Shown piece by piece: positions 22,774 through 51,788 of a stretch of 64,000 nucleotides of DNA. Under the pieces are notes generated by a model. It saw only the letters and a list, made by a program, of their open reading frames with translations, was not told the DNA's origin and made no database searches. The stretch is from Escherichia coli (GTDB lineage Bacteria > Pseudomonadota > Gammaproteobacteria > Enterobacterales > Enterobacteriaceae): NCBI RefSeq assembly GCF_013122565.1, contig NZ_CP053258.1. One strand, given 5' to 3'. Both the position numbers and the translations under genes were made by a program. Every line of letters begins with the position of its first letter. The first letter of the stretch is position 1.

Positions 22774-23228
22774 GCCATTCTCCTTCCGACCATAATAATA
22801 ATGTCAGCAGTTTTTTTGGCATAATTATCTGTTCCGCCTGTGCTACTATCTCCAGAATTAAATCCGGCCTTTACCAGAGCATCACAGAAAGCCAAAGCAT
22901 CCTTTATGTCTCTGGCTGCATTACCATATTTTATTGCAAAAGATCGTGCACAGATTGAAAAAGACGGAAAAGTAGCCACCCGGGTTTTCTTGTTACCGTG
23001 CGGACGGATTTCGCCTGACTGAAATGATGCAGGGGCATGCAGGGAGAAATAGTTGTTATATTCCCTGGCAATACGGCCTGTACCATACTGGCTCTCCGCC
23101 GCGGCAAGCCCCAGAATATTTTCCACAGGAACATTAAGTTGTTTAGCGATTAATTCACATTCTTTCAGATGCTGCTGAACAAACCTTACTGCATTAACAT
23201 CATTACAGGCTTTGTCATAAGACCCCAT
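22758..23228 (-). CDS. putative peptidoglycan glycoside-hydrolase effector (FlgJ/GH73 glucosaminidase-like, Tge-like)
   Basis: 156 aa, no signal peptide; ILGLAAAESQYG and NNYFSL resemble the FlgJ glucosaminidase motifs. Confidence 0.55.
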   Translation of the reverse strand: MGSYDKACNDVNAVRFVQQHLKECELIAKQLNVPVENILGLAAAESQYGTGRIAREYNNYFSLHAPASFQSGEIRPHGNKKTRVATFPSFSICARSFAIKYGNAARDIKDALAFCDALVKAGFNSGDSSTGGTDNYAKKTADIIIMVGRRMACPVK

Positions 23229-24029: not shown

Positions 24030-27000
24030 AGCGCTCGCTCCGGGCAGGCGAAGCGTTGCAGTAGCCCACGGTTCACCGGGTCAAAATCCCGTCCTGCGGT
24101 GATTTCCAGCACCACCCGCCGCCCGTCAAAGCTATATTCAACCTGCTGTGTTCCCCGTACCGCCGTCTCCTGCGCGTTACCCGCATCCAGCAGGTGAAAC
24201 AGCGCCCACGGTCCGTTAGTCAGCAGCGTCGAGGTGTCCTGGCGGATGCGCGGGCTGGCGGTGATTTCCGCCATTGAGCCGTTGCGCGGCCCCGGCCAGT
24301 TCACTTTCAGCGGTCTGACCGGGCCGTGAGCGTAACGCAGCACCTGACCGTCGATATCAATCACCAGTTCAGTGATTGCAGGGTCCATATCCACGACGCG
24401 GACCTGCATCGCCCAGGAAAACTTTTTCCCGCCTTCACCGTTAAAAAAAACGCTGCGGATCTGTTTCGCCTCCTGAAACGGCGTCAGGTCCGGCCCCTGT
24501 AAGGTCATGTTGCCTTCGGTCGGTTTGTAGCGCCACGGGTTGCTGGCGGTGTCCGCCAGCGGGGCCAGTTGCTTCGTCCAGAACGCATCCAGCACACCGC
24601 CGCTGGCAAAGATATGGTTAAAATCGTCCGCGCTGACCTCCTGCGGGCTGTCGGTAAAGGGGTAGCGCCCGTCAATAGCATCACGGCACTCATCGCCAAT
24701 CACCGCTTCCATCTGCGCGTTCAGCACTTCACCGGTGCCGGCGTTGATTTTGCGCGTTCCCTGCTGCGTGAGATCCAGCAAAATATTTTTCAGCGGTGCG
24801 GGCAGTTTTGCCGCCTCCAGTTGCAGTTTATCCGCCGCCGAAATACGGCCAGGTAATGTGCTCGCTGCCAGCGCGCTGTCGGCGATGGTGAGCTGGGTGT
24901 AATATTCATTGAGCATTGTCAGCAGCGAATTTAACTGCGGCGCGCCACCAGTCTGCCCGCTGTCTGTCCGCCCGGAAACCACTTCCCGCAAGGCGGCGAA
25001 ACGGTCATCCACCAGTGATTTCTCCAGCCGCTCTTCCGGGTGGATGTCCTGTAACAGCTTTGCCGTCTGCCCCGCTTTTCCCACATTGCCGGAGAGCCGG
25101 TCCTGCGCACGCTGGGCCATCTGCTTTTGTCTGGCCTGCGCATCCAGCGGCGGCACCAGCGTGGTCTGCTCCACCACCGCTTTACTCAGGCGCATCAGCG
25201 GGGAATCCGGCGAGGCCAGGGTACGCAGCACCTGAAGGTCATACGCCAGCCCGGGACTGCCGTCTTCCCCGGCACTGTTGATGCTGTGAATACTTGCCAG
25301 AAAATCCTGCCAGCGGCGGGCATATTCAGCCAGGTACAGGCGGCGTACCTCACGGGTAACCGGGAGTTCCTGCCCCGGCAACTGGCTCATCACAATATCC
25401 GTTGTTTTTTTTTGCGCGTTTTCCCGGCCCATCACCCAGGCATCGTCCGCTGATGCGGCTGCGACAAACTCCGACAGCCGTTTGTCGAACAGTTCCCGGT
25501 AGCCTTCGCGAGTGAAGATGCCGGGCACGCCCCTATCCAGCGGCGCGCCATCCGTGCGGACAAAAACCGTTCCCGCATCCGCGCCCACAGCGCGAACCAG
25601 CGAAAACTCCTGCGGTGCTTCGCTCTCCATGGAAGCCAGGGCTCGAGTGTAGATACGCTCGGTGCTGGTATGGCCGTCAAGGAAGGCTCGCGCCTGGCGG
25701 ATCAGCCCCTCATCTTTTTCCCAGGGCGAATGCACCACGCGGCTGCCGTCAAACAGGGCATCGATATGCTCCAGCACGGCGGCGCGACCGCCGAACTCCG
25801 CCACGCTGTCGCGGTTGTCCAGGTCGTTCAGCACCCAGGCGTGGATCTCCGCCGCGTTGTATTTATCCTCGTGGTCCTTATCGAGGTTCAGCAACAGATA
25901 AACATGCAGGGCGTCATAGGCGGCTTTGCTGTCCTGACGCGCAATCGCATCCGAAAGCACGTATTCCATGCGTTTCACCAGCGGTGGCAGCAGTAACTGG
26001 TCCAGCAGGCGGTCATACAGGGATGCGACGCTCTCCATCACCGGCGGAACGCTGTAAAGACCATAACGCCAGGCCAGCGGCGGCGAGTCCGGGTCCAGTC
26101 CCGGCCAGGCAGAGAGCGCCCGTGCCTGGTTCAGCAGGGCCGGAACAGGCTGCATAGCAGGTTTTCCGGTATAGGCTTTGACATCACCATCCAGTTGGGT
26201 CGTCCGGCTGGCGATTTCATTCAGATAACCGCTGTTACCCTGCTGGCTGCCCTGCATTCCCTGCCACAACCAGAAAGCCAGCGCCAGTACCAGCAGATGC
26301 CCGCCAGTGCGCAGCAGGCGGTAACGCCAGGCCCACTGAAGGTTCGGCTCCACCAGGTGCGCTTCGCGGAAGATAAACTGCGTCAGTAGATCGTGCAGGA
26401 AATAGCTGCGGTTGCCGTCCGGCAGGGTATGGGATGGGGAATCAGCCTTCCCTTTGATAGCACGGACAAAACGCTGCCAGATGCCCGTCTTGTCAGCCAC
26501 GGCGTCTGCCTGCGCCTGCGCGGCGCTGGTAAAAAATACGCCGCGCAGGGTGTTGTTAAGCTGGGTGGCGTCAAATTTTGAATCGAGGAAAATCTGCTCA
26601 ATGGCTTCCAGCAGCGGCGCACCCAGCGCGGCAAATTCACGCGGGAAGCGATAGAGCCGCTGGCGGCTTTTAAGGTCGTACTCTTCCTGCAACCGGGTAT
26701 CCAGCCCCTGATCCAGCCGCAGGGTCAGGTTTGCCAGTTCCTGGCTACAGAGCGCATGCAGCGACTGCGGATCGCTGGCGTGACGCCTGCGGCTGTATGG
26801 CAGAGTAAAGCCCCAGACCTGGGCGCGCAGGTGGCTGGTCAGCCCGTGGAAATACTCCGTAAAGCCCGGCAGCAGATCCATCTTGGTGACAACCAGATAG
26901 ACCGGAAAACGAATACCCAGCGTCTCCCGCAGTTCCGCCAGCCGCGCACGCAGGGCCGCACAGGCAGCCAGCCGTTCCGCCGGGGACTGCGCAGTCAGAT

Positions 27001-28187: not shown

Positions 28188-28871
28188 CTAATGGGCGATG
28201 AGTAAATTAGAGAAATGCAACCAGTTGTTGACAATAAAATTGCCATAGCTGGTATCTTCCTTTATTTTCTCCAGAGTAAGCGACATACCCCGGTTATAAC
28301 GGGCACCAATAATTCTTATCTGCTCTTTCGTCAGGTGTGGTAAGGAGGACTGAAATTCATCTCTTTCAGCTAATTTATAAATATGTCTGGCCACAAGTTG
28401 AATATTAAAAATATCATGCTGGAGGCAATTTGCCAGTTCACGCAATTGAGAGGTATCCATTTTTGACTCATCAAGCCCAAGCGTTCTGGCTGCGGTTCGC
28501 AATTGCATACTCACTGCACCAAAAGATGTTTTTTCTGGTCTCGAAGTTATTGTGATATGTTCATCAATCCACTCAGGCCCACTCCAGTCAATAGTCCGAG
28601 CATCAAATGCCAGCATATCTACAATACTGGGATCCCCCCCGACTTCTATCCAACACACACCTGCCAGTAAAGGTGCTGGCAAATTATATGTATTGGCAGC
28701 CGACGTTATCAGAAGATGGTTATGTTTTACCCAGCCATCTTTGAAATAACGCCCAAACGGTACACCACCGCCCCATTTTTTTGGCGCTAATTTCCAGAAA
28801 AGAAATTCGGTCACGCCCCATACCGGTGAATGATTCGATGCATTGCAGTCCAGATTATTCATTTTTCTCAC
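28188..28871 (-). CDS. lytic-transglycosylase (SLT)-like protein, T6SS-associated
   Basis: 227 aa, no signal peptide; LAGVCWIEVGGDP and FGAVSMQLRTAARTLGLD resemble the SLT Glu and GLMQ motifs. Confidence 0.45.
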   Translation of the reverse strand: MRKMNNLDCNASNHSPVWGVTEFLFWKLAPKKWGGGVPFGRYFKDGWVKHNHLLITSAANTYNLPAPLLAGVCWIEVGGDPSIVDMLAFDARTIDWSGPEWIDEHITITSRPEKTSFGAVSMQLRTAARTLGLDESKMDTSQLRELANCLQHDIFNIQLVARHIYKLAERDEFQSSLPHLTKEQIRIIGARYNRGMSLTLEKIKEDTSYGNFIVNNWLHFSNLLIAH

Positions 28872-30184
28872 TCCACCACCAGAATTTCCACCCGACGGTT
28901 CTGCGCCCGTCCGGTTTTAGTGCTGTTATCGGCCACCGGTACGGTATCTCCTTTCCCGACGACCCGAATCCGGCTGACCGGAACACCACCGGACGTCAGC
29001 AGTGAAGCCACTTCCGTCGCCCGTTTTTCCGACAACACCTGGTTGGAGGGGAATTCAGCGGAGTGGATCGGCTGACTGTCGGTGTGTCCGGTCACCGTCA
29101 CCGCGCCGCCCACACGCGCAATCTCTCGCGCGGCCTTATCAATCACCGGGCTTAGCGCATCATTCACGGTTTTCTGCCCTGGTATAAACATCGTATCGCC
29201 ACGAAAGATTACACGGCTGTGATGGTCATCTTCCTCCACCGTCAGCAGGCCACGGGCGATTTCGTTCGCCAGCAGGATTTTCAGCCGCAGTTTATGCACT
29301 GGAACGGGTGGCGGCGGTAGATTTTTACCAATGGCGTCGATACGCTGTTGTACGGTTTCGGTAGCGAGGTTCATCCGGTGGCTGTAAAGGCCAAACAGCG
29401 TCAGCATCACCAGCAGAGCGATTCCGGCGCTCAGCCAGACCGGCACCCGGCGCATCCGCCGCATTCGCCCACTGACGGCACCGGCAAAACCCGGCGAGAG
29501 CATCGGCGTGATTGGATCGCGACGCTGGACCAGTTGAGTCAGCAGTTGCTGACGGATATCGTCCAGTTGCTTACGCCCGTCAGGCCGTACACTGTAGCGG
29601 CCTTCAAAACCCAGCCCCAGAATGTGGTAGATGATCTCCAGTACATCGTTGTGCTCCTGGAAGCTTGCGGCCAGACGCCCAATTATCTGAAACAGCTTGA
29701 TGCCGCCTTCACTTTCGCCATGAAAAGTGACCAGCAGGCTTTTTCCAGCCCAGACACCGCGCCGTCCCCAGGTGGTGTTGTTGGCGGCTTCGTCCAGCGA
29801 AGTGCATAGGCAATAACGCACAGCCAGCACATGTTCGCGGCGAAGGTTTGCTTGATCGCATAACGTCTGATATCGACGAACTTCACGCTCCAGTAGGGCG
29901 CGATAATGTTCGACAAAACCAGGGGATAGTTCACGGGGCATTTGCGCCAGCGCGCATAACAGAGGGCTGGCCGCCGCCAGGAGAGGATTCACAGCACCAG
30001 TGATCTCAGCCAAACGGAGCTTCAAATCTGGCCCGTCTTCAACCACCACCTTTATATCTTCCCTGCGAAGGCTGTCCTGGATGAGCGTATCGTAACCTTC
30101 ATTATCAGGCGACCTTGTTCCCTTCATTGAAGTCTGTAATGGCAGAGTATTCACCGCAGGTTGCGTCAGAATATCGTCGGTCAT
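28868..30184 (-). CDS. tssL: TssL (DotU) with C-terminal OmpA-like peptidoglycan-binding extension
   Basis: 438 aa; central transmembrane helix; C-terminus ...NRRVEILVVE typical of OmpA/MotB domains. Confidence 0.85.
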   Translation of the reverse strand: MTDDILTQPAVNTLPLQTSMKGTRSPDNEGYDTLIQDSLRREDIKVVVEDGPDLKLRLAEITGAVNPLLAAASPLLCALAQMPRELSPGFVEHYRALLEREVRRYQTLCDQANLRREHVLAVRYCLCTSLDEAANNTTWGRRGVWAGKSLLVTFHGESEGGIKLFQIIGRLAASFQEHNDVLEIIYHILGLGFEGRYSVRPDGRKQLDDIRQQLLTQLVQRRDPITPMLSPGFAGAVSGRMRRMRRVPVWLSAGIALLVMLTLFGLYSHRMNLATETVQQRIDAIGKNLPPPPVPVHKLRLKILLANEIARGLLTVEEDDHHSRVIFRGDTMFIPGQKTVNDALSPVIDKAAREIARVGGAVTVTGHTDSQPIHSAEFPSNQVLSEKRATEVASLLTSGGVPVSRIRVVGKGDTVPVADNSTKTGRAQNRRVEILVVE

Positions 30185-32831: not shown

Positions 32832-33287
32832 TCATTCACATATTAAAGATACGGGTTTCTCCCTTGGTGGTTCATCGAAATAAAGAGTCTTACAGGAATG
32901 AGTATTTACAGGTACTGGCTGAGATAACCAGACCAGTCCGTAGCTATAAATACAGGAAAACCAGTATCTGTCGCTCTCTTTCGCTGTCGCGCCTTCTGTA
33001 TTCCATATCAACCATGTTTCCTGTTTTATTTTTTTCATCTCTGGCTTCTGATCGCCAAAATTTTCCGGTTTATCCTGTGTGACACTAATATGCGTTAACC
33101 ACTGACGAGGCTCCTGCCGTGGGGAAACTCTCCATTGCGGCTGGACAAATGATTTCAGAACCGCGGTGTAAGGCTCCGTTTCAACAAAAACAGGACAAGT
33201 AACTTCCCATGCCGACACATTTTGTGCATAAAACAAGGCAACACCAGAAAGAAGCAATACAGGAAAGCGCATCATCGTACCTTCCAT
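32832..33287 (-). CDS. putative secreted immunity protein (Tai-like)
   Basis: 151 aa with signal peptide, directly downstream of the amidase-like gene. Confidence 0.5.
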   Translation of the reverse strand: MEGTMMRFPVLLLSGVALFYAQNVSAWEVTCPVFVETEPYTAVLKSFVQPQWRVSPRQEPRQWLTHISVTQDKPENFGDQKPEMKKIKQETWLIWNTEGATAKESDRYWFSCIYSYGLVWLSQPVPVNTHSCKTLYFDEPPREKPVSLICE

Positions 33288-33670
33288 TATTCAATTACAT
33301 AAAATGCTTCAGCATTACTGCTGGCGCTGGGATACGAACCGTCAGAGTTTGCTCCGCCTTTCGGTCTGAGTTGATGTTTTTCGATTCTGATCTGCGTTCT
33401 CCACTGATCCATAACCCAGATCCCTCGTTTATCCTGCCCCAGATAGAATGCAGCATGATTACCTGAACTCCTGCCAGGCCATCGCCCATTAAAAAAAGTG
33501 GCAATAGCGGTACCTTTTGGAATGGTGGTGTCCCCCCACACTTTCTTACCCGCACGCCATGTTGCTGTGGAGCCAAGATGTGCATACCTTTTAACCAGAG
33601 TTACACACTCACCATCCCCCACTAATGGCTGCCCCTGTAATAAATCCACTGATTCATAAACTCGCGACAT
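33287..33670 (-). CDS. putative Cys/His papain-fold peptidoglycan amidase effector (Tae-like)
   Basis: 127 aa; candidate catalytic Cys (GECVTLVKRY) and His (NHAAFY) about 60 residues apart; sits between tssC and hcp where SPI-6-type islands carry tae/tai. Confidence 0.5.
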   Translation of the reverse strand: MSRVYESVDLLQGQPLVGDGECVTLVKRYAHLGSTATWRAGKKVWGDTTIPKGTAIATFFNGRWPGRSSGNHAAFYLGQDKRGIWVMDQWRTQIRIEKHQLRPKGGANSDGSYPSASSNAEAFYVIE

Positions 33671-33709: not shown

Positions 33710-35224
33710 TCAGGCATTACCCTGTTTTACCGACGGCAGTTTTGTGACCAGACGCAGTGATCCTGTTAACCCTTCAAGCTGAAAATGCGGGCGCAGGAAG
33801 AATTTGGCATCGTAATAACCCGGATTACCTTCCACCTCTTCCACCACCACTTCGGCTGCTGCTAGTGGGCGACGAGCTTTGGTTTCCTGTGAGGAGTTCA
33901 CCGGATCGGCATCGACGTAGTTCATGATCCACTCATTGAGCCAGCGCTGCATATCTTCACGCTCTTTGAACGAGCCGATCTTGTCGCGCACGATACATTT
34001 GAGGAAGTGCGCAAACCGTGAACAGGCGAAAAGATATGGCAAACGAGCTGAGAGATTAGCGTTGGCCGTAGCGTCCGGATCGTAATATTCCTGCGGTTTT
34101 TGCAGCGACTGTGCGCCAATAAAGGCGGCATAATCGGAGTTTTTGCGGTGGATCAGCGGGATAAAACCGTTTTTGGCCAGTTCAGCTTCACGGCGATCAG
34201 AGATGGCAATTTCCGTCGGGCATTTCATATCCACGCCGCCGTCATCGGTCGGGAAGGTATGACAGGGTAGATTTTCCACCGCGCCACCAGATTCAACACC
34301 ACGGATCAACGTACACCAACCGTAATGTTTGAAAGAACGGTTGATATTTACACCCATTGCATAGGCGGCATTGCTCCAGACATATTTGCTGTGATCTGCG
34401 CCATCCGCATCTTCTTCAAAATCAAACTCATCTACAGGGTTTGTTTTCGCACCATAAGGCAAACGGGAGAGGAAACGTGGCATCGTCAGGCCAATGTAGC
34501 GAGAATCCTCACTTTTCCGCAGCGAGTTCCACGGTGCGTATTCGAGGTTTTGGGTCACAATTTTGGTCAAATCACGCGGGTTAGCCAGTTCCTGCCAGGA
34601 GTCCATCTGCAACACTGACGGAGAGGCCCCGGCAATAAACGGCGCATGGGCTGAGGCTGCTACTTTGGCAATGGAACCGAGCAGATCCACATCCGGTGGC
34701 GTGTGATCAAAATAATAATCCGCAATAATACAACCGTAAGGTTCTCCACCTAACTGTCCATATTCAGCTTCATACAGCTTTTTGAACATGGGGCTTTGAT
34801 CCCAGGCTATCCCTTTGTAACGTTTCATATTTTTCCGCAATTCATCCTTCGAAAGGTTCATAAAGCGGATTTTTAATTTTTCATCGGTTTCAGTGTTGTA
34901 AACCAAATGTTCCATCCCACGCCAGGAGGACTCCAGTTTCTGAAATTCCGGATGACTCAGGATGAGTTTGATCTGCTCGGTTAATTTGAAATCAATCTGC
35001 TCAATAATCGCAGCAATACTTTTATAAGCGTCGTCACTGACGGTGACGGTATTTGTCAGAGCCTGTTGGGCCAGCGTCTGAACTGCTGCCTCAACAGCCT
35101 TTGCTGCCTGAGGTGTCTTGGGACGGAAGGCTTTATCCAGGAGCGAATCAAATTCAGTGTCCTGATAGGCAGTGGTTTGCGCAGCAGAGAGATCGCCAGT
35201 CGCCAGAAGAGTATCGTTTACCAT
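33710..35224 (-). CDS. tssC: T6SS sheath large subunit TssC (VipB)
   Basis: 504 aa; conserved TssC sequence. Confidence 0.92.
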   Translation of the reverse strand: MVNDTLLATGDLSAAQTTAYQDTEFDSLLDKAFRPKTPQAAKAVEAAVQTLAQQALTNTVTVSDDAYKSIAAIIEQIDFKLTEQIKLILSHPEFQKLESSWRGMEHLVYNTETDEKLKIRFMNLSKDELRKNMKRYKGIAWDQSPMFKKLYEAEYGQLGGEPYGCIIADYYFDHTPPDVDLLGSIAKVAASAHAPFIAGASPSVLQMDSWQELANPRDLTKIVTQNLEYAPWNSLRKSEDSRYIGLTMPRFLSRLPYGAKTNPVDEFDFEEDADGADHSKYVWSNAAYAMGVNINRSFKHYGWCTLIRGVESGGAVENLPCHTFPTDDGGVDMKCPTEIAISDRREAELAKNGFIPLIHRKNSDYAAFIGAQSLQKPQEYYDPDATANANLSARLPYLFACSRFAHFLKCIVRDKIGSFKEREDMQRWLNEWIMNYVDADPVNSSQETKARRPLAAAEVVVEEVEGNPGYYDAKFFLRPHFQLEGLTGSLRLVTKLPSVKQGNA

Positions 35225-35248
35225 GAAAGTTCCTTAATAAAATCGCAG

Positions 35249-35794
35249 TTAGTCTGCTGTTCCCGTTTCACCTGATAAGACACTTTCCTGTTGAGCGACA
35301 GGTTTTGGCGCACTGGCCAGAGCTTTCAGTAACGTAGGGTCTTGTAATAGTTTGTTGATAAGATTTTCTGCTCCCGCTTTACCATCCATATACGTTTGTA
35401 GGTTGGCAAGCTGAGTACGCGCTTCCAGCAGCTGGTTCAGGGCATCCACCTTACGGGCAATCTGCGCAGGCGAAAAATCGTCCATATTCTCCAGCGTGAT
35501 ATCGACCATTAACTGCCCTTCGCCCGTCAGCGTATTGGGGACAGCAAACGCCACGCGCGGCGCAATGGCTTTCATCCGCTCGTTGAAGTTATCGATATCA
35601 ATATCAAGGAATTTACGATCGGTGACCGGTGGCAGCTCTTCGCGAGGTTTACCGGCCAGATCGGCCAGCACCGCCATGACAAACGGCAGTTCGATTTTTT
35701 TCTCGGAGCCGTAAATCTCAACGTCATACTCAATCTGCACGCGGGGCGCACGGTTGCGGGCAATAAACTTCTGCGCGCTATTGTTGATAGCCAT
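35249..35794 (-). CDS. tssB: T6SS sheath small subunit TssB (VipA)
   Basis: 181 aa; ...APRVQIEYDVEIYGSEKKIELPFVMAVLADL typical of TssB. Confidence 0.92.
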   Translation of the reverse strand: MAINNSAQKFIARNRAPRVQIEYDVEIYGSEKKIELPFVMAVLADLAGKPREELPPVTDRKFLDIDIDNFNERMKAIAPRVAFAVPNTLTGEGQLMVDITLENMDDFSPAQIARKVDALNQLLEARTQLANLQTYMDGKAGAENLINKLLQDPTLLKALASAPKPVAQQESVLSGETGTAD

Positions 35795-35855
35795 AATCCT
35801 TCATTTCCTTATCAGTCAGCCGACGACCACCTGGGGAGTGGCCCGACGGTACAGT

Positions 35856-36146
35856 TTAAAAATCATACGCAGAGAGTATTTTTATAATCTCTTTGTTTTC
35901 TTTGTACTTTTCCCGCAGCACAGGGAGTGATTTCTTCGCTGGAGGACACCAGGTATCAACCCCCTTTTCGATGTCTCTTTTATCCTTCTCTGGTAAAGAA
36001 CTGTCCCATTCACCAGCAAGATGCTGGCACATTTCCGCATTACTCAGAAAATGCTGCACATCCTGTGGTAAAGACGGTTCCCCCTGAGCACAGAAAGCGA
36101 ACATCATTAACAGGAATGTCCACAACACCGGATAACGAAATGTCAT
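35856..36146 (-). CDS. small secreted protein of unknown function
   Basis: 96 aa with signal peptide; between clpV and tssB. Confidence 0.4.
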   Translation of the reverse strand: MTFRYPVLWTFLLMMFAFCAQGEPSLPQDVQHFLSNAEMCQHLAGEWDSSLPEKDKRDIEKGVDTWCPPAKKSLPVLREKYKENKEIIKILSAYDF

Positions 36147-36364
36147 ACTTAATGTCCATCAATTGACCAGTGCATGAGATATGCTCTAGCGGGAGGGCGA
36201 TATGTTGCAGAGATACTGACCCTTGCACGCGCATTACCAAGCGCGCGCAAAAAATTATCTACCGATACACGAAAAGTCCCCTGCAAATCATTGGTGGAAG
36301 AACTTCCAGGAAAGCGACTGACCCACAGCGCGCCACTTAATTCTTTTTCCATAAGGATGCTCCA

Positions 36365-38998
36365 TTAATCCGTTTCAAAAATAATCTGTTCATCCTCATC
36401 AACACGAATGCGGATTTGCGTGATGGCCGTTTTCTCTGTCATCGCCTGCAACCAGTAACGGGACAGTTGTGGGAGGATATGTTGTTCGATATAGCCGATG
36501 AGCAAACGAGCGCCGGTTTCGTGCATCGGGCAGCGCGACACAATATGCGTAATCAATTCATCGCCATACACCAGTGAAACGCCATGCTGCTCCGCCATCC
36601 GATCCATCAATCTGCCAAGATGCAGGCGGGCAATAACACCACGCGCGGTCTCATCCAGCGGTAAATAAGGAATAACCGTCACACGCCCCAGGAAAGCCGC
36701 CGGGAAGTGTTTACGTAACTCCGGCATTAACGCCTCTTTTAATCCTGCCGAATCAGGCATCAGCGCCGGATCCTCACAGAGCTGGCTGATAAGTTCCGCT
36801 CCCGCGTTAGTAGTCAACAACAGCGTGGTATTTTTGAAATCGATGTGGACACCTTCGCCATCTTCCATCGCCCCCTTATCAAACACCTGGAAGAACAGCT
36901 CGTGGACGTCGTGATGGGCTTTTTCAATTTCATCCAGCAATACCACGCTCCAGGGATGGCGGCGTACCGCTTCTGTCAACACGCCGCCTTCGCCATAACC
37001 CACGTAGCCGGGCGGTGCGCCTTTCAGCGTGGAAACGGTGTGGGACTCCTGAAACTCGCTCATGTTGATGGTGATCAGGTTCTGCTCACCGCCATAGATA
37101 GCCTCTGCCAGCGCCAGAGCGGTCTCAGTCTTGCCAACACCGGACGGCCCGGCCAGCAAAAAGACGCCCACAGGCTTACGCGGGTCACCTAAACCCGCCC
37201 GCGCGGTCTGGATACGCTCGCCAATCTGCGCCAGCGCGTCCCTCTGCCCGGTAACACGCTGCGCCAGACGGGCGGGCAGTTCCAGGATCTGACTGGCCTC
37301 ATCTTTCACCATGCGTCCGGCGGGAATACCGGTCCAGTCGGAGACAATCTCTGCCACCACGGTTGCACTGACTTCCGGGTACACGACGGGGTTTTCACCC
37401 TGCCAACCTCTTAATGCCGTTTCTGCCTGTTGTAGAGTGATTTCGTCGCGCTCGCCGGGCTCTGCGCCGCGTTGCTCGTGTAAACTGCGAACCAACTCCA
37501 GTTCCTGCTGCCACCGCGCTTCGGTGTCAGAAAGATCGGCATTCAGCGATATAATCCGCGCCGCCAGTACATCGCCCCGCTCCGAGCGGATACCCATTTT
37601 TTCCTGCTTTAATAACAACTCCTGCTCCAGTTCGGCAGCGTTGAGCTGCTGGCGCAGATACTGGACTCTCGCAGGCGGGGTATGCAGCGACAGCGCTACA
37701 CGGGCCGCCGCCGTATCCAGCAGGCTGATGGCCTTATCCGGTAGTTGCCGGGACGGAATGTACCGGTGAGAAAGCTGTACCGCGGCGCGCACGGCCTCAT
37801 CAAGGATCAGGACGTCATGGTGTTTTTCAAGCGTGGTGACTAACCCGCGTACCATCTCAACAGCCGCAACCTCTTCTGGCTCAGCAACCTGCAATACCTG
37901 AAAACGCCGGGTCAGCGCCGGATCCTTTTCGATATGGCGTTTGTACTCGCTCCAGGTAGTTGCGCCGATGGTGCGCAGGGTTCCACGCGCCAGCGCCGGT
38001 TTCAGCAGGTTGGCAGCATCCCCCGTACCGGATGTACCACCAGCGCCCACCAGCGTGTGAACTTCATCAACAAAAAGGATCACCGGCTGCGGCGAGCGCG
38101 CGGCCTCTTCCAACAACGCTTTCAGGCGGGATTCAAATTCACCCTTCATGGACGCCCCTGCCAGCAGCGCTCCAACATCCAGTGACAGCAACCGCACGTT
38201 ACGCAGTGAAGGCGGTACTTCCCCCCCGGCAATCGCCAGCGCGAATCCTTCCACCACTGCCGTTTTCCCGACTCCCGCCTCGCCGGTCAGCAGCGGGTTG
38301 TTCTGGCGACGGCGCAGCAGAATATCCGTCATAGTACGGATCTCGTGTTCGCGACCGGTGACCGGATCGATATTGCCTTCACGGGCCAGCGCAGTCATGT
38401 CCTGGCAGTATTTCGCCAGCGCGGATTTGCTTCCGGTTGATTCGCCGGCAAAGACCTGGCTAGCTTCCCCCGGTACTGCAGAATTTAAATCCGAGCCGTC
38501 ATAAGGCATTTCTGTTAATTCAGGAGATGAAGTGATTAAAGACGGAAGAATATCTAATAGTTCATCTACCGGTAGCTCTGCCAATGGCGCACAAATATTT
38601 TTTAACACCCGACACAATTCTGGCGTGGTTAACCAGGCAAGTAATAACCATCCACTACGAATTTTTTGATCGCCAAAGCGGATACTTGCCAACATCCAGG
38701 CTTTTTCAACAGAAAGATCGATATGATGGGAAAAATCGTTAATTACACTCGCTCCGGCAGGCAATATATTCAATTGCTGAATTAACGCCTTCTCAACATC
38801 AGCAGATGTTATTTGATAATGTCGAAGCACATTGTGAATGTCATTCTCTGGTTGTTGTATTAACTGATGCAACCAATGTGTCAGTTCGACATAAGGATTA
38901 GCGCGTAATTTACAGAACGTTGTCGCAGATTCCAAAGATCTAAACAAAGATTTGGTTAGCTTTCCATATAGTGCACTGCGCGAAACAGGAGTGTCCAT
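36365..38998 (-). CDS. clpV: T6SS AAA+ ATPase ClpV (TssH)
   Basis: 877 aa; two Walker A motifs (GEAGVGKTAVVEG, GPSGVGKTETA); Clp N-domain. Confidence 0.92.
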   Translation of the reverse strand: MDTPVSRSALYGKLTKSLFRSLESATTFCKLRANPYVELTHWLHQLIQQPENDIHNVLRHYQITSADVEKALIQQLNILPAGASVINDFSHHIDLSVEKAWMLASIRFGDQKIRSGWLLLAWLTTPELCRVLKNICAPLAELPVDELLDILPSLITSSPELTEMPYDGSDLNSAVPGEASQVFAGESTGSKSALAKYCQDMTALAREGNIDPVTGREHEIRTMTDILLRRRQNNPLLTGEAGVGKTAVVEGFALAIAGGEVPPSLRNVRLLSLDVGALLAGASMKGEFESRLKALLEEAARSPQPVILFVDEVHTLVGAGGTSGTGDAANLLKPALARGTLRTIGATTWSEYKRHIEKDPALTRRFQVLQVAEPEEVAAVEMVRGLVTTLEKHHDVLILDEAVRAAVQLSHRYIPSRQLPDKAISLLDTAAARVALSLHTPPARVQYLRQQLNAAELEQELLLKQEKMGIRSERGDVLAARIISLNADLSDTEARWQQELELVRSLHEQRGAEPGERDEITLQQAETALRGWQGENPVVYPEVSATVVAEIVSDWTGIPAGRMVKDEASQILELPARLAQRVTGQRDALAQIGERIQTARAGLGDPRKPVGVFLLAGPSGVGKTETALALAEAIYGGEQNLITINMSEFQESHTVSTLKGAPPGYVGYGEGGVLTEAVRRHPWSVVLLDEIEKAHHDVHELFFQVFDKGAMEDGEGVHIDFKNTTLLLTTNAGAELISQLCEDPALMPDSAGLKEALMPELRKHFPAAFLGRVTVIPYLPLDETARGVIARLHLGRLMDRMAEQHGVSLVYGDELITHIVSRCPMHETGARLLIGYIEQHILPQLSRYWLQAMTEKTAITQIRIRVDEDEQIIFETD

Positions 38999-39330
38999 CT
39001 GTTACACCTGATGATGTAAGAACATATAAATGATACATAAACATAACTGTACCGATTAAAACTTCTAATTAATAGAATTATCAAAAAGGCAGAATGAAAC
39101 AATGATGCATATCACAGAACCCAATGTAATATAGCAGGTAGTATCGTTTTTATGGTGATATTCAATAGCGTAAGCCAATTTCATACAAGCCATGAATATA
39201 TTAAATTGAAAATCGCCAATATATATTTCTGTAAAAACTTATATTGATAAAGCAAATTGATCAGCATTGCTTATCTAAAAATTTAGAAAACTTATTCTTT
39301 TGAAAGAAACACTCTACACAGTGATACACA
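38999..39330. promoter_or_regulatory. AT-rich divergent intergenic region between the two T6SS operons
   Basis: 332 bp non-coding; contains imperfect palindrome aagcaaattgatcagcattgctt centred on a GATC site. Confidence 0.4.
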
Positions 39331-40245
39331 ATGAAACAAAATATTACGTGGGGACTCCAAAAAAAACAGGCGCACGGGATCGCCGATAACACAATTTACG
39401 CGACTGAAGGAACACAAATTATCTTTACCGTTACCTCTCCCTGGATTCCTGTTTTTGAGGTGAATGATGATGTAAAGATTGCCCTCAGTCTGACCCGCCA
39501 CGAAGAAGCATGGTGGATTATTAATCAGTCTACCGAATATTGCTGTACGGTAAACGACCAGATTGTGGAACCTCATCACCGTATGCGTCTGAATGAAGGC
39601 GATCAGATAGAATGGGGGTTATCTTCATGGTGCCTTGTGCATGGCACCCCATCATCTCCGGACATGAGCGCAGTAAAAACAATATCGCAGACTGCCATCA
39701 CGTCGGAAACAATAACCGAATATCTGGATCTGGATTGGTTCAGGCAGCAGCATCTGACATCACAAAATCCATTCGATATCATTCCTGTTCATGGAGCCTC
39801 CTCCACCGGAGAAGATGCGGAAAAAGAAAATGCCCTGACCCGACTTTATCAGGAATACCGCGAGGCGTTGTTATCTCCCGAAGAAGATCTTCATCGCCAT
39901 GCTGATCCTTTTCCCTTTAACGAAGAGCCCTCCTCGCAGGATCTGGATTCATTGCGTGACCTGGTCACCGAAGCCGATACATTGCAGGATATGGTCACTG
40001 GTGGGTTAAGCATTGACGCTATTCTCAATGTACTGGATGCCACCGGCGAAGATGAAACTATCTGGCCTGTCGAAAAGACTCCCCCTGATATCCTGCATTT
40101 ACTTTCCCCGGAATACGCCCCGGAAACAGCGCATAACACCGTACTGCCAGATCTGACACGCAAAGAGCACCGCATTATCGGCATTGACAGCCATTACCGG
40201 ATAAACCCGGCACAACACGGAGATATCTCTCATGACAAACAATAA
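39331..40245 (+). CDS. FHA-domain T6SS-associated protein (TagH-like)
   Basis: 304 aa; N-terminal FHA-like signature (SLTRHEEAWWIIN, STEYCCTVNDQ, RLNEGDQIEWG); first gene of the + operon. Confidence 0.55.
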   Translation: MKQNITWGLQKKQAHGIADNTIYATEGTQIIFTVTSPWIPVFEVNDDVKIALSLTRHEEAWWIINQSTEYCCTVNDQIVEPHHRMRLNEGDQIEWGLSSWCLVHGTPSSPDMSAVKTISQTAITSETITEYLDLDWFRQQHLTSQNPFDIIPVHGASSTGEDAEKENALTRLYQEYREALLSPEEDLHRHADPFPFNEEPSSQDLDSLRDLVTEADTLQDMVTGGLSIDAILNVLDATGEDETIWPVEKTPPDILHLLSPEYAPETAHNTVLPDLTRKEHRIIGIDSHYRINPAQHGDISHDKQ

Positions 40246-41062
40246 CGTGCTACCGGCTACCCTGTCGGCGCTGCTGCGGGATTATTCCGTGGCGGAGGGC
40301 ATTCAGATGGCAGAGCAGCAGGTCAGGATGCACCCAGCGCAGGCCTCCCGCCGCCACAGCCTGTTTCAGTTACTGTGCGTGGCAGGCGACTGGTCGCGGG
40401 CGCTGCAACAGATCCAGCTGTGCGACCGGATGGACGCAAATTATACCCGCGAAGCGCAGGTATTTGGCGAGCTGATCCGCTGTGAGATATACCGCCACGC
40501 CTGCTTTCAGGGGGAACAGCGGCCCGGTTTTATTCTCCCGCCGCCCGCCTGGATGGAGGATCTACTGGCTGCTCTCGCCTGTAACGCCCGTAGTGAAGCG
40601 CAGGAAGCTGATGTCCACCGCAGCCGCGCGCTTGAGGCCATAACAGACACTTCTGGGCAGTGGAATGGCGGCGCGTTTGACTGGATTAGCGACAGCGACT
40701 CCCGTACCGGTCCGGTACTCGAACTGATCGCAGGCGGGGTGTATATCTGGCTGCCATTCTCACAAATTCGCTCACTGAAATCGCCGCAGCCTGCGCATCT
40801 GACCGATTTGCTCTGGAAACCCGTCAACGTCACCCTGCACAACGGTGACACGCACAGTGCCTGGCTGTTTCCCCGCTACAGCGGCTCTGAAAAGGCCGCC
40901 GACTCCCTGCGTCTGTGCCGGGAAACGGTCTGGCAGGACGGGCCGGGAGAGACGCTGGTACAGGCGCTGGGTCAGAGGGTGTGGCTCACCAGCCAGGGCG
41001 ATATCAGCCTGCTGGATTTGTCCACCTGTACCTTTAATACCTCCGAAGGAAGCGACGCGTGA
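40232..41062 (+). CDS. tagJ: T6SS accessory protein TagJ (ImpE family)
   Basis: 276 aa; position between FHA gene and tssE; ImpE-like. Confidence 0.65.
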   Translation: MTNNNVLPATLSALLRDYSVAEGIQMAEQQVRMHPAQASRRHSLFQLLCVAGDWSRALQQIQLCDRMDANYTREAQVFGELIRCEIYRHACFQGEQRPGFILPPPAWMEDLLAALACNARSEAQEADVHRSRALEAITDTSGQWNGGAFDWISDSDSRTGPVLELIAGGVYIWLPFSQIRSLKSPQPAHLTDLLWKPVNVTLHNGDTHSAWLFPRYSGSEKAADSLRLCRETVWQDGPGETLVQALGQRVWLTSQGDISLLDLSTCTFNTSEGSDA

Positions 41063-44454: not shown

Positions 44455-45501
44455 ATGGAAATATTCCTGTCTGACCCAATTTCGGCGGAATGTCCCTGCG
44501 GCCCGGATCTGGAGTACGATCCGGAATACCTGCTACTGTTCACTCGCGCCGCACCGCGTGAAGAAGCGCAATACGGCGATTTTGTCAGTACGCCGGAAAC
44601 CATTAACTGGGCGGAGCTTGAGCGGGACGCCCATCGTCTGCTGATGCGCAGCAAAGATATCCGCATTCTGGTTGTCCTGCTGCGCTGCCGTATCCAGCAG
44701 GCCGGCGCACAGGGACTGGCAGACGCGCTCGCGTTGCTGGAAACGTTGTGCGCCACGTACCCGGACGCCATCCATCCGCAACTGCTCGCGACTGAAGATA
44801 TCACCGCCGAAGAGGCGGCAGTGGCACGTAGTAACGCGCTGGCGGCGTTGCTGGACCACGAAGGAGTAATGGCGGATATTCGTGGCATTACACTGTCAAA
44901 TAATGTCGCCATGTGCCTTCAGGTTCGCGATGTGGAGCGTTCGCTGTCAGCATCACGCCCGGCGGATGCGCTGGCACCGGAATCAGTACGCCAGCAACTG
45001 GCCGACCTGGAAGCGCGCGGCACATTGCCGCTGGATGCCTTTCGCCAGGCCGCAGAGACCACTGAACGGCTGCAACGCCATGCGCGTGAAACGCTGAATG
45101 ACCAGGCACCGGACTTCTCCCGTCTGACGCAACTGCTGGCCCTGTTACCGGGAGCAGTGCAGAGCACCACGCCGGAGATCCTGCCACAACCACAGGCTGA
45201 ACAGCCGGAGAATGCCACCATCGATAATACTGAAAAGATGCAGGCAGAGCAGATTGCGCTAGCGGTGCATATCGCGGAGGAAATATCACCGATATCCGGC
45301 GCAGAACCTCGGCAGATCCGCGACCGGAACGATGCGCTGGAACGCCTGCGTGTCATCCGTCGCTGGTTTGAGCACAGCGAACCGAGCAGCCCGACCATTC
45401 CTTTGCTGCTCCAGGCAGAACGCCTGGTCGGAAAACGCTTCTCTGAGGTAATAAATGAAATTCCAGTAGAACTGCTGGAGAAATGGGATGCGCTGGAGTA
45501 A
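44455..45501 (+). CDS. tssA: TssA-family protein (ImpA N-terminal domain)
   Basis: 348 aa; N-terminal PISAECPCGPDLEYDPEY motif. Confidence 0.75.
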   Translation: MEIFLSDPISAECPCGPDLEYDPEYLLLFTRAAPREEAQYGDFVSTPETINWAELERDAHRLLMRSKDIRILVVLLRCRIQQAGAQGLADALALLETLCATYPDAIHPQLLATEDITAEEAAVARSNALAALLDHEGVMADIRGITLSNNVAMCLQVRDVERSLSASRPADALAPESVRQQLADLEARGTLPLDAFRQAAETTERLQRHARETLNDQAPDFSRLTQLLALLPGAVQSTTPEILPQPQAEQPENATIDNTEKMQAEQIALAVHIAEEISPISGAEPRQIRDRNDALERLRVIRRWFEHSEPSSPTIPLLLQAERLVGKRFSEVINEIPVELLEKWDALE

Positions 45502-45593
45502 CAGAAGTGGTCAGAATTTATAATGTCTGGCCATTTTTAAATCATATCGTTTTACTTCCGGAGTGAAAAATTCTCACTTCACCAAAACGACGA

Positions 45594-45625
45594 AAGCCCG
45601 AATCATTGCTGATTCGGGCTTTCTG
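45594..45625 (-). terminator. intrinsic terminator downstream of aspV
   Basis: aagcccgaatc ... gattcgggctt hairpin followed by U-run on the tRNA strand. Confidence 0.6.
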
Positions 45626-45630
45626 AATAT

Positions 45631-45707
45631 TGGCGGAACGGACGGGACTCGAACCCGCGACCCCCTGCGTGACAGGCAGGTATTCTAACCGACTGAACTA
45701 CCGCTCC
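45631..45707 (-). tRNA. aspV: tRNA-Asp (GUC)
   Basis: Exact 77 nt match to the E. coli tRNA-Asp sequence including CCA (reverse complement). Confidence 0.97.
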
Positions 45708-45839
45708 GCGTTGTGTTCCGTTGGGAACGAGGCGAATATTACGGATTGCCTCACCCTTCGTCAACGGTTTTTCTCATCCTTTGAATCGTTTGCTGCAAAA
45801 ATCGCCCAAGTCGCTATTTTTAGCGCCTTTTACATGTAT

Positions 45840-46571
45840 TTATGCCCGCCAGAGGCAGCTTCCGCCCTTTTTCTGCACCAGATCGAGACGGGCTTCATGT
45901 GCTGCAAGCTCTTCATCTGTCGCAAAAACAACGCGTAACTTACTTGCCTGACGTACAAGGCGCTGGATTGTTGCTTCACCTTGTTGCTGTTGTGTCTCTC
46001 CTTCCATCGCAAAAGCCATCGACGTTTGACCACCGGTCATCGCCAGATAAACTTCCGCAAGGATCTGGGCATCGAGTAATGCCCCGTGCAGCGTTCGTTT
46101 ACTGTTATCTATTTCGTAGCGAGCACATAACGCATCGAGGCTGTTGCGCTTACCGGGAAACATTTTCCTCGCCACCGCAAGGCTATCGGTGACCTTACAG
46201 AAGGTATTGGTCTTCGGAATATCGCGCTTAAGCAACGAAAACTCGTAGTCCATAAAGCCGATATCGAACGCTGCGTTATGGATCACCAACTCCGCGCCGC
46301 GGATATAGTCCATGAACTCATCGGCTACTTCGGCAAACGTGGGCTTATCGAGCAAAAATTCATCGGCAATACCATGTACGCCAAAGGCTTCAGGATCCAC
46401 CAGCCGATCGGGTTTGAGATAAACATGGAAGTTATTGCCCGTCAGGCGACGGTTCACCACTTCAACGGCACCAATCTCAATGATCTTGTGGCCTTCATAG
46501 TGCGCACCAATCTGGTTCATACCGGTGGTTTCGGTATCGAGAACGATCTGGCGTGTAATTGCAGTGCTCAT
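45840..46571 (-). CDS. dnaQ: DNA polymerase III epsilon subunit (3'-5' proofreading exonuclease)
   Basis: 243 aa from [17 protein letters not shown]; conserved synteny with rnhA. Confidence 0.95.
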
Positions 46572-46635
46572 AGCGGTCATTTATGTCAGACTTGTCGTTT
46601 TACAGTTCGATTCAATTACAGGAAGTCTACCAGAG

Positions 46636-47103
46636 ATGCTTAAACAGGTAGAAATTTTCACCGATGGTTCGTGTCTGGGTAATCCTGGACCTGGGGGTTA
46701 CGGCGCTATTTTACGCTATCGCGGACGCGAGAAAACCTTTAGCGCAGGCTACACCCGCACCACCAACAACCGTATGGAGTTGATGGCCGCTATTGTCGCG
46801 CTGGAGGCGTTAAAAGAACATTGCGAAGTCATTTTGAGTACCGACAGCCAGTATGTACGCCAGGGTATCACCCAGTGGATCCATAACTGGAAAAAACGTG
46901 GCTGGAAAACCGCAGACAAAAAACCAGTAAAAAATGTCGATCTCTGGCAACGTCTTGATGCTGCGCTGGGGCAACATCAAATCAAATGGGAATGGGTTAA
47001 AGGCCATGCCGGACACCCGGAAAACGAACGCTGTGATGAACTGGCTCGTGCTGCGGCGATGAATCCCACACTGGAAGATACGGGCTATCAAGTCGAAGTT
47101 TAA
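46636..47103 (+). CDS. rnhA: ribonuclease HI
   Basis: 155 aa from [23 protein letters not shown]; divergent from dnaQ. Confidence 0.95.
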
Positions 47104-47840
47104 GCCTGTGGTTTACGACATTGCCGGGTGGCTCCAACCGCCTGGCGAATTCGTGGCTTGTTTTTACTCTGTTTCATCTGATTTAGCGTTAAAGGAATAG
47201 TCCGTTTCCGGGCAACAATAAGTTGTAAGCAACCAAGCGCAGGAATATGCGCATTCAATAGTTTTCCTCCGTGTTTGTTCCACGGGAGAACGTGGAAACG
47301 GCTGGCGTGTAGCACTTCAAAATTCAACAAAGAGAGCCAATCCAGTTGCCGCATCAGAGTAAACATCCGGCTATTATAGGGCGAGGTTTTGCGCAATACC
47401 GGTACAAGTTTGCGTAATCCCATTAAACTGATGGGATTGAAGCCACTAATGACCAGCCAGCCATCATCAATCAATACCCGATCGGCCTCACGCAATAAAC
47501 GATGTGGATCGGTGCACCACGGCAATGTATGTGCCAGTAGACAAACATCAACGGATTTATCGGCAAAAGGAAGATGAAGTGGGTCCGCCTGTACCTGGAC
47601 GGGCATTCCTTGCGCAGAAACATTCACTTGATGAGAAACCGCGCACGCTTCGCAATTGATTTCTGCGCTTAAATTGCCAATCTTAAGCAGATGAAAACCA
47701 TACATTTTAGTGAACCACGGGTTGAGCTGGCGCTCCAGCGCCTTGCGATAAAGCTCTCCCCAGGGCAAATCGCCCCAGCAATCAGGAGCCACGACAGTTT
47801 GAGGGACTCTTGCCGGTTTCATCACAACCTTCCGTTTCAC
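47100..47840 (-). CDS. yafS: SAM-dependent methyltransferase YafS
   Basis: 246 aa ORF (true start may be the internal MKPARV at 47822); K-12 synteny. Confidence 0.8.
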
Positions 47841-47852
47841 ACTGAGAGGTAA

Positions 47853-48611
<759 letters not shown>

Positions 48612-48682
48612 TAAAACTTTCTTGTCATCGGCTCCATTCGCCGTTATGATCGGTCGTCTTTTAAGCAACTATTGACACACAC

Positions 48683-50041
48683 ATGAAGGCAAAAGCGATA
48701 TTACTCGCCTCTGTCCTGCTCGTGGGTTGCCAGAGTACCGGCAACGTTCAACAGCACGCACAGAGCCTTTCTGCAGCTGGTCAAGGGGAAGCAGCAAAGT
48801 TTACAAGTCAGGCACGATGGATGGACGATGGGACGTCTATCGCGCCAGATGGTGACTTGTGGGCTTTCATTGGCGACGAGCTAAAGATGGGAATTCCGGA
48901 AAATGACCGGATTCGCGAACAGAAACAGAAATATTTACGCAATAAGAGCTATCTCCACGATGTAACTTTACGGGCAGAGCCGTATATGTACTGGATAGCC
49001 GGGCAAGTTAAAAAACGTAACATGCCTATGGAACTGGTACTACTACCCATAGTGGAGAGCGCTTTTGATCCTCACGCAACGTCTGGCGCCAATGCCGCAG
49101 GCATCTGGCAGATCATTCCGAGCACGGGGCGCAATTATGGTTTGAAACAGACCCGCAATTATGACGCGCGTCGCGATGTTGTTGCTTCCACAACTGCCGC
49201 GCTGAACATGATGCAGCGTCTGAACAAGATGTTTGACGGCGACTGGCTTCTGACCGTAGCGGCTTATAACAGCGGCGAAGGTCGGGTCATGAAGGCAATT
49301 AAAACGAACAAAGCGCGTGGGAAATCCACGGACTTCTGGTCGTTACCGTTGCCGCAGGAAACGAAGCAGTACGTGCCTAAAATGCTGGCATTGAGTGATA
49401 TTCTCAAAAACAGCAAGCGTTATGGCGTACGTCTGCCAACGACCGATGAAAGCCGTGCTCTGGCGCGTGTGCACCTGAGCAGCCCGGTTGAAATGGCGAA
49501 GGTTGCAGATATGGCGGGGATTTCCGTCAGCAAGCTGAAGACATTCAACGCTGGCGTGAAAGGCTCCACGCTGGGCGCAAGTGGTCCGCAGTACGTGATG
49601 GTGCCAAAGAAGCATGCAGATCAACTGCGTGAATCTCTGGCTTCAGGTGAAATTGCTGCTGTACAGTCGACGCTGGTTGCCGACAATACGCCGCTTAACA
49701 GCCGTGTTTACACCGTACGCTCTGGCGACACGCTTTCAAGTATCGCTTCACGTCTCGGCGTAAGCACCAAAGATTTGCAGCAGTGGAACAAACTGCGCGG
49801 ATCTAAGCTGAAGCCAGGCCAAAGTTTGACGGTTGGTGCAGGCAGTAGCGCACAGCGGTTGGCAAACAACAGCGATAGCATTACGTATCGTGTGCGCAAA
49901 GGCGATTCGCTTTCAAGCATTGCTAAACGCCACGGCGTGAACATCAAAGATGTGATGCGCTGGAACAGCGACACTGCGAATCTGCAACCAGGCGATAAGC
50001 TGACGTTGTTTGTGAAAAACAACAACATGCCAGATTCCTGA
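48683..50041 (+). CDS. mltD: membrane-bound lytic murein transglycosylase D
   Basis: 452 aa; lipoprotein signal (LLVGCQS), SLT domain, C-terminal LysM repeats. Confidence 0.93.
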   Translation: MKAKAILLASVLLVGCQSTGNVQQHAQSLSAAGQGEAAKFTSQARWMDDGTSIAPDGDLWAFIGDELKMGIPENDRIREQKQKYLRNKSYLHDVTLRAEPYMYWIAGQVKKRNMPMELVLLPIVESAFDPHATSGANAAGIWQIIPSTGRNYGLKQTRNYDARRDVVASTTAALNMMQRLNKMFDGDWLLTVAAYNSGEGRVMKAIKTNKARGKSTDFWSLPLPQETKQYVPKMLALSDILKNSKRYGVRLPTTDESRALARVHLSSPVEMAKVADMAGISVSKLKTFNAGVKGSTLGASGPQYVMVPKKHADQLRESLASGEIAAVQSTLVADNTPLNSRVYTVRSGDTLSSIASRLGVSTKDLQQWNKLRGSKLKPGQSLTVGAGSSAQRLANNSDSITYRVRKGDSLSSIAKRHGVNIKDVMRWNSDTANLQPGDKLTLFVKNNNMPDS

Positions 50042-50088
50042 CAAACCAGATAATAAAAAGGCACCGATTCCCCCGGTGCCTTTTTTAT

Positions 50089-50936: not shown

Positions 50937-51788
<852 letters not shown>

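Follow-up and report, generated by a model that had tools for sequence, protein, structure and literature searches.

A candidate orphan immunity gene and the remnant of its LAS/M15-type effector between clpV and tssB of an Escherichia coli T6SS cluster

We analyzed a 64,000-nt stretch of the Escherichia coli contig NZ_CP053258.1 (the window), in which a small gene on the minus strand (positions 35856-36146) separates two structural genes of a T6SS cluster. Most likely, the product of this gene is the periplasmic immunity protein cognate to a T6SS effector of the LAS/M15 type, and the gene was orphaned by a deletion inside the effector gene, a reading to which we assign a probability of roughly 0.8. 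In intact loci, the T6SS would fire a leaderless 187-aa enzyme into the periplasm of a neighboring cell, where it would cut the stem peptides of peptidoglycan. The small protein would be exported via Sec, fold as a helical hairpin stapled by a disulfide between Cys-40 and Cys-67, and bind and block enzyme molecules arriving from sister cells. In the window, the effector gene has lost 120 codons, including its catalytic core, through an in-frame deletion between 9-bp repeats, which leaves the immunity gene as a presumed orphan that is still embedded in the clpV-tssB operon. The orphan presumably continues to confer protection against E. coli or Salmonella strains in which the enzyme is active. 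The first-pass annotation of the DNA had suggested an immunity protein retained after loss of its effector. This suggestion is supported by the deletion and by parallel cases in Salmonella, but the effector is not absent: a 67-aa remnant of it is found directly upstream.

The small gene and its protein family

The gene is an ATG-initiated ORF of the minus strand (35856-36146, with the stop codon at 35856-35858 counted in), and its translation is MTFRYPVLWTFLLMMFAFCAQGEPSLPQDVQHFLSNAEMCQHLAGEWDSSLPEKDKRDIEKGVDTWCPPAKKSLPVLREKYKENKEIIKILSAYDF, a 96-aa precursor of a small periplasmic protein with a predicted immunity function. Upstream, and in the same direction, lies tssH/clpV (36365-38998, minus strand), an 877-aa ORF named after the RefSeq annotation of ~99%-identical relatives. 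Immediately downstream lies tssB (VipA; 35249-35794, minus strand; Pfam T6SS_VipA, E = 6e-58). RefSeq labels the two flanking genes likewise in E. coli genomes with 98-99% identity in this region. A promoter and terminator scan of positions 35200-39400 returned counts at shuffle expectation, with no excess of sites between clpV and tssB; the 96-aa ORF thus appears to belong to the clpV-tssBC transcription unit.

We assessed signal peptides with sequence rules and a hydrophobicity script. Codons 1-22 of the small gene (36081-36146, minus strand) specify MTFRYPVLWTFLLMMFAFCAQG, followed by Glu-Pro. This N terminus reads as a Sec signal peptide, with one basic residue (Arg), a hydrophobic core of 12 residues, and A-Q-G at positions -3 to -1, after which cleavage is predicted. 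A genuine 96-aa ORF with a Sec-type leader is thus located between clpV and tssB, as the first-pass annotation had stated. The several cysteines that it had mentioned amount to three, one of which, Cys-19, is confined to the signal peptide and replaced by Ser in relatives. The other two, Cys-40 (codon 36027-36029, minus strand) and Cys-67 (codon 35946-35948, minus strand), are invariant in an alignment of 112 family members. An AF2 model of the mature 74 residues, calculated with 112 homologues, has a pLDDT of 95.8 and contains helices at residues 6-24, 31-58, and 63-69. Cys-40 is located on helix 1 and Cys-67 on helix 2 of this model, and they are the predicted partners of a disulfide bond. 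The family fold is accordingly modeled as a disulfide-stapled helical hairpin.

Homologues of the small protein are widespread. A word-indexed protein search found 47 clusters at 90% identity, only from Escherichia, Salmonella, and Citrobacter; a Salmonella protein (P0015) is 80% identical to the window protein, and those of two Salmonella loci discussed below (L009 and L012) are 80-95% identical. With a family profile built from seven sequences and run against 1.84 billion representative proteins, we obtained 560 clusters at E <= 1e-3 and 103 clusters at E <= 1e-10. Nearly all of these proteins are ~95-110 aa long, and the match begins after ~20-30 residues. A hydrophobic N-terminal leader is present in at least 86 of 112 family members, and a lipobox-like motif in 16 of 112. 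Conservation in related islands, on which the first-pass annotation had made its proposal depend, is therefore borne out by the 47 clusters, by the 560 found with the profile, and by dN/dS ratios of 0.1-0.2. Between pairs of divergent lineages, dN/dS of the 96-aa gene ranges from 0.10 to 0.24, values expected of a real coding gene and indicative of purifying selection. All of the locus-bearing complete E. coli genomes that we examined have it annotated as an intact CDS. Some relatives carry frameshifted copies (P0028, P0041, and P0043), and the gene is thus dispensable in some lineages.

We found no family assignment for the 96-aa protein in Pfam, NCBIfam, PADLOC, or PHROGs, and a Pfam scan of the 112 family members returned no match. 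A fold search with the small protein gave no specific match. Comparison with the known Tai and Tsi families, which the first-pass annotation had proposed as a check, was thus negative, and we saw no likeness in sequence or specific fold to the Tai1-4, Rap1a/2a, Tsi1/3, Tgi, or Tldi immunity families. The protein contains the motif WCPPAKK, which resembles the active site WCPPCKK of StoA/ResA, and it could on this basis be a thioredoxin-like periplasmic redox protein. The NCBIfam model StoA_CxxC indeed matches with E = 1.2e-6, as does StoA itself (PDB 3erw, E = 0.003, residues 42-84), and thioredoxin-2 was matched as well. The StoA_CxxC score of 28.5 bits, however, compares with a curated cut-off of 210, the motif is CPPA, with Ala in place of the second cysteine of CxxC, and homologues have YCGTA, VCPTA, LCEAA, or VCMKA at this position. 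The 74-residue mature protein is moreover modeled as all-helical, not alpha/beta, and no thioredoxin is among its fold matches. We consider a redox function extremely improbable.

The effector remnant and its full-length counterpart

The first-pass annotation had described the small gene as lacking an adjacent effector. This has to be revised, as the stop codon of a 67-aa ORF (36149-36352, minus strand) lies 2 nt before the ATG of the 96-aa gene, and this ORF is the remnant of a 187-aa effector-like gene. We compared the window with E. coli ETEC1738 and E. coli 2012C-4221 in a three-way alignment. The window is short of exactly 360 bp, or 120 codons, in frame (alignment columns 249-608). In the full-length gene, two copies of the 9-bp direct repeat CACTGGTCA are located 360 bp apart, and the deletion spans the interval between them; the one surviving copy marks the deletion junction (36164-36172, minus strand). 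Both the start and the stop codon of the gene survive in the remnant, as does the 2-nt spacing from the small gene, but residues ~62-181 are lost, including S118-x-H120-x-x-G-x-A-x-D127 and D178. Because every catalytic motif is gone, the 67-aa product cannot be an enzyme, and by alignment the ORF is a pseudogene-like remnant.

Full-length versions of the gene are common. Of 5,426 complete E. coli genomes searched by megablast with positions 35700-36500, 117 contain the locus, and in most of these the match is split by the extra 360 bp; the deleted segment, and with it the full-length effector gene, is present in 108 of the 117. The exact junction of the window recurs in at least six complete E. 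coli genomes and also in the Salmonella locus L012. The mature small protein is 100% identical between the window and strains with the full-length effector, which suggests that the deletion in the window is recent. In relatives, the 187-aa product is annotated as 'hypothetical' or as 'peptidoglycan-binding domain-containing protein'.

By sequence rules, the 187-aa protein has no signal peptide or membrane anchor, and its N terminus, MAKELSGALWVSRFPGSSS, is not hydrophobic. It contains the motifs S118-N-H-T-R-G-T-A-I-D127 and D178-I-P-H181, corresponding to SxHxxGxAxD and (D/E)xxH, which we take to be the zinc-site motifs of MEROPS M15/LAS enzymes such as VanX, VanY, and Ply500. Among 118 effector homologues, Arg-52, His-120, Asp-178, and His-181 are invariant, and Asp-127 is conserved in at least 90%. 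An AF2 model calculated from the alignment of the 118 homologues has a mean pLDDT of 96.6. In a Foldseek search of the PDB with this model, the best 19 matches are all LAS/M15 peptidoglycan peptidases, headed by the L-Ala-D-Glu endopeptidase Ply500 (2vo9, E = 8e-5, probability 1.0) and including LysB4, VanY, VanX, LdcB, LysECD7, and Serratia ChiX. The TM-scores of these matches are modest (0.3-0.5), with identities of 9-14%. Curated M15 models were not reached at threshold (Peptidase_M15_4, 14.7 bits versus a cut-off of 25). Peptidase_M15_4 and VanY are the commonest sub-threshold Pfam matches in the effector family, with VanY matched in 8 of 118 members at a best E-value of 0.002. The sequence profile of the effector family found no match among PDB sequences, so that only the fold search was informative. 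The full-length effector is thus modeled with the fold and motifs of a LAS/M15 zinc peptidase, and the fold match, together with the sub-threshold Pfam scores and the empty PDB sequence search, places it in a distant, unannotated branch of the LAS/M15 superfamily.

We next turn to the association of the two genes. Scanning the effector alignment against one genome per species (GTDB) yielded 73 effector loci. In 42 of these, the next ORF downstream on the same strand matches the HMM of the small-protein family, and the HMM detected no other copy of this family within the 6-kb flanks of the 73 loci. The remaining 31 loci, mostly from Paenibacillus, alphaproteobacterial, Chloroflexi, and Planctomycetes genomes, have a different downstream gene or none. 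The homologues in Gram-positive Paenibacillus (L053:5851-6576; also L056-L058, L060, L061, L064, L067, and L069), at 44-47% identity, come with a Sec signal peptide of their own, and no immunity-family gene is located near them. The enzyme family is thus not T6SS-specific, and a leader without a partner gene is what would be expected where a T6SS is lacking and a lytic enzyme is secreted freely. In 18 of 73 loci, the effector gene is directly preceded by a gene for a PAAR protein (~200 aa) or for VgrG. In Pectobacterium (L004), Herbaspirillum (L007), and Intestinirhabdus (L008), a leader-bearing protein of ~100 aa is encoded directly after the enzyme gene, and these proteins have the core F-x-x-N-A-E-x-C-x-H-x-x-G-E ... 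C ... Y-x-F in common. As read from sequence, the gene pairing, the distribution of leaders, and the PAAR/VgrG context are the standard signature of a T6SS cargo effector that would act in the periplasm, accompanied by its immunity protein. The ~200-aa PAAR proteins (L006:4457-5053 and L007:4415-5008) also share a region with the VgrG proteins found at the same position in Pseudomonas (L030:2459-4765 and L080:3606-5993; phmmer E ~1e-11), which may represent a common adaptor domain for effector loading.

Gene context also bears on the other role that the first-pass annotation had considered, that of a periplasmic accessory factor. The LAS peptidase could be a cell wall remodeler needed for assembly of the machine, with the small protein as its regulator. 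Peptidoglycan hydrolases, M15-type ones among them, have been described with a proposed role in T6SS biogenesis, namely TagX of Acinetobacter and the proposed TagY of Sinorhizobium (PMC11872809), and the pair in the window is indeed placed inside the structural operon, between clpV and tssB. However, the 187-aa enzyme has no leader or anchor and is in this respect unlike a self-acting periplasmic remodeler. In other genomes, the pair is found far from T6SS structural genes, outside any T6SS cluster in Pectobacterium (L004) and Intestinirhabdus (L008), or directly after PAAR/VgrG genes, a typical arrangement for cargo effectors. The enzyme is also deleted or mutated in most E. coli and in many Salmonella, whereas the other T6SS genes of the window are full-length ORFs. 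As the small gene travels with the effector outside T6SS clusters and is the next gene in 42 of 73 loci, we judge a TagX/TagY-type biogenesis role, and with it the accessory function, highly unlikely.

Other parts of the cluster contain further candidate pairs. Directly after tssC on the minus strand (32832-33670), a second effector/immunity-like pair is formed by a 127-aa BPSL0067-family protein (33287-33670; NCBIfam E = 7e-48) and a 151-aa leader-bearing STY0301-family protein (32832-33287; NCBIfam E = 4e-14). At 18736-21984 (minus strand), between vgrG and the gene for a glucosaminidase-domain protein, we found two consecutive overlapping gene pairs, of 128 + 233 aa and of 120 + 268 aa, plus a 253-aa ORF. 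The corresponding region of E. coli LHM10-1, the closest complete genome (99.3% identical), has a single pair of 120 + 268 aa, and the segment may be a duplicated or swapped cassette. At 22312-23228 (minus strand), in the region after tssM/tagF, a 156-aa ORF corresponding to a glucosaminidase-domain protein of a 99%-identical relative and the 153-aa ORF downstream of it overlap; the two are probably a Tge2/Tgi2-type pair. LHM10-1 has internal stops in tssL and tagJ, which are annotated there as pseudogenes (L087:13169-14485 and 24532-25362); their counterparts in the window are full length (28868-30184, 438 aa, and 40232-41062, 276 aa). At ~45500-59600, the island adjoins a tRNA-Asp gene and dnaQ-rnhA-yafS-gloB-mltD, followed by a second tRNA-Asp gene and an rRNA operon, a boundary judged from an annotated relative and from an ORF-poor stretch at 54018-57786.

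Repeated loss of the effector and persistence of the small gene

Effector deletions have also occurred in Salmonella. Locus L009 (3916-4000) carries a separate, larger in-frame deletion that leaves a 32-aa remnant, MPKELSGAQWVYGVTKFVGGNTDKPHWSIDGH. This peptide can be aligned with the two termini of the 187-aa E. coli protein, and the C-terminal His is the only catalytic residue that it retains. In L012 (3782-4000), the junction of the window is found together with a 1-nt insertion that causes a frameshift. A third in-frame deletion, in cluster P0079, removes residues ~30-91 and leaves 126 aa. The gene order in L009 and L012 is clpV, (remnant), 96-aa gene, tssB. In S. salamae (L010:3870-5400), clpV, tssC, and nearly all of tssB are absent and the degraded island adjoins a DDE transposase gene; the small gene and the next immunity-like genes of variable region 1 (VR1) have been kept.

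Full-length alleles may be disabled as well. Using codon-127 probes, we found Asn in place of the predicted zinc ligand Asp-127 in 90 of 108 full-length E. coli effector alleles (for example, WP_001040751) and Asp in 18 of 108, with E. coli 2012C-4221 (WP_106906295) and ETEC1738 as examples of the Asp form (example locus in complete E. coli genomes, effector gene L086:841-1404), so that only 18 of 117 locus-bearing complete E. coli genomes encode the canonical full-length Asp-127 enzyme; genome sampling is clonal, and these counts do not represent independent events. The D127N exchange would be expected to inactivate the enzyme. The D127N lineage has accumulated 5-6 nonsynonymous and 2-3 synonymous substitutions, too few to show relaxed selection.

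It is conceivable that the 96-aa gene is a decaying passenger, a former immunity gene that has been functionless since the effector was lost and that persists only because the loss is recent and the surrounding T6SS operon essential. The identity of the mature protein with that of full-length-effector strains leaves little time since the deletion, and keeping the small gene in the window could therefore be neutral. Frameshifted copies in some relatives point in the same direction, as does the D127N exchange, since most E. coli effector alleles may be inactive and the threat thereby removed; with the exchange in 90 of 108 alleles, the enzyme may be active in only a few E. coli attackers, and immunity would then be under weaker selection. 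Several observations nevertheless argue for retention of a functional gene. The small gene has stayed intact across independent effector deletions in Salmonella, where the type with the 32-aa remnant has been reported from 18 of 60 curated genomes and from numerous serotypes (PMC10469887, PMC11669294), it has been kept in S. salamae despite the loss of structural genes, and its long-term dN/dS is 0.1-0.2. In addition, after each of the three independent deletions the reading frame still leads into the stop codon next to the start of the immunity gene. We thus regard a functionless passenger as unlikely and favor an orphaned immunity gene that has presumably kept its protective value.

Were the frame of no consequence, the chance that all three deletions would preserve it into this stop codon would be ~1 in 27. 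This hints at translational coupling, or at avoided polarity on tssBC, with the proviso that three events are few and that L012 is frameshifted. Given at least three independent in-frame deletions and the D127N exchange (90 of 117 genomes) in the effector, next to an immunity gene that stays intact, the locus could record selection, in both E. coli and Salmonella, for giving up the weapon and keeping the shield, a tentative idea that we think is rather less probable than its opposite. If it were true, the in-frame deletions would reflect selection for translational coupling or against polarity on tssBC. The canonical Asp-127 enzyme in 18 of 117 genomes, next to intact immunity genes, in any case provides a clean natural data set for asking why weapons are dropped and shields are kept.

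Relation to known systems

A module at this genomic position has been proposed before. In the in-silico work of Blondel et al. (2023; PMC10469887), variable region 1 of Salmonella SPI-6 was predicted to contain a candidate 'L-Ala-D-Glu endopeptidase' effector with its immunity protein, namely an unannotated 32-aa ORF with an endopeptidase domain in the tssH-tssB interval, followed by a signal-peptide protein proposed as immunity protein. The module was reported in 18 of 60 curated genomes, and the 32-aa ORF was later listed for many serotypes (PMC11669294). It shares with the window the tssH-tssB position, the small signal-peptide family, and the enzyme family. The published work takes the 32-aa ORF as the effector, whereas our alignment indicates that it is a deletion remnant, devoid of all catalytic residues but the C-terminal His, rather than a functional effector. 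The window differs from the SPI-6 module in carrying a different, independent deletion that leaves 67 aa, and the 187-aa form occurs at full length in E. coli and Escherichia sp. Counts of effector repertoires are consequently inflated wherever the 32-aa SPI-6 ORF has been included. For the window, the annotation can be settled: the 96-aa ORF is real and conserved and has a specific predicted role, and the 67-aa ORF is a remnant.

The architecture of the intact pair resembles Tae4/Tai4, Ssp1/Rap1a, and Ssp2/Rap2a of Salmonella, Enterobacter, and Serratia, in which a T6SS peptidoglycan amidase is combined with a small periplasmic immunity protein. The predicted pair follows the logic of these systems, with a leaderless wall hydrolase followed by a small, Sec-exported, Cys-containing, and mainly helical immunity protein, in or near a T6SS cluster. 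Unlike them, the partner in the window is a predicted zinc peptidase of the LAS/M15 type and not a papain-like amidase, and we found no relationship in sequence or specific fold. The predicted fold and zinc-site motifs of the full-length effector instead match Ply500 (2vo9), Serratia ChiX (5opz), VanY/VanX, and LdcB, with identities of 9-14% and Pfam M15 scores below threshold. None of them is known as a T6SS substrate that is paired with an immunity protein of its own. We also considered Re78/Re79 of Rhizobium etli as a characterized relative, but its immunity protein is ~32 kDa and its effector has no known domains, and the two systems are thus unrelated. Together, the effector and its putative ~75-residue helical inhibitor would define a large unannotated effector-immunity family, with 560 immunity clusters and more than 350 effector clusters, no Pfam model, and members in Enterobacterales, Burkholderiales, Pseudomonas, and Acetobacter. 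The family is an easy target for structural and biochemical work.

Arrays of orphan immunity genes occur in Bacteroides and Vibrio. Orphan T6SS immunity genes have also been described as an islet in S. Typhi (PMC7400221). Like such islets, the window gene is an example of immunity maintained in the absence of a functional cognate effector, presumably to shield the cell from other strains. It is unlike them in that the candidate orphan was created in situ, when the effector gene suffered an internal deletion that has left a visible remnant, and was not acquired as a stand-alone gene. In kind, then, the locus is familiar: peptidoglycan-hydrolase effectors with small periplasmic immunity proteins and orphan immunity genes are both known, and a module at this position had already been proposed in silico. 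We add to this the effector in its full-length form, together with an assignment based on its structural model, and we recognize the published 32-aa 'effector' and the 67-aa ORF of the window as what two independent deletions have left. We also document how large and how widely distributed the two unannotated families are, and how prevalent apparently disabled alleles are in E. coli.
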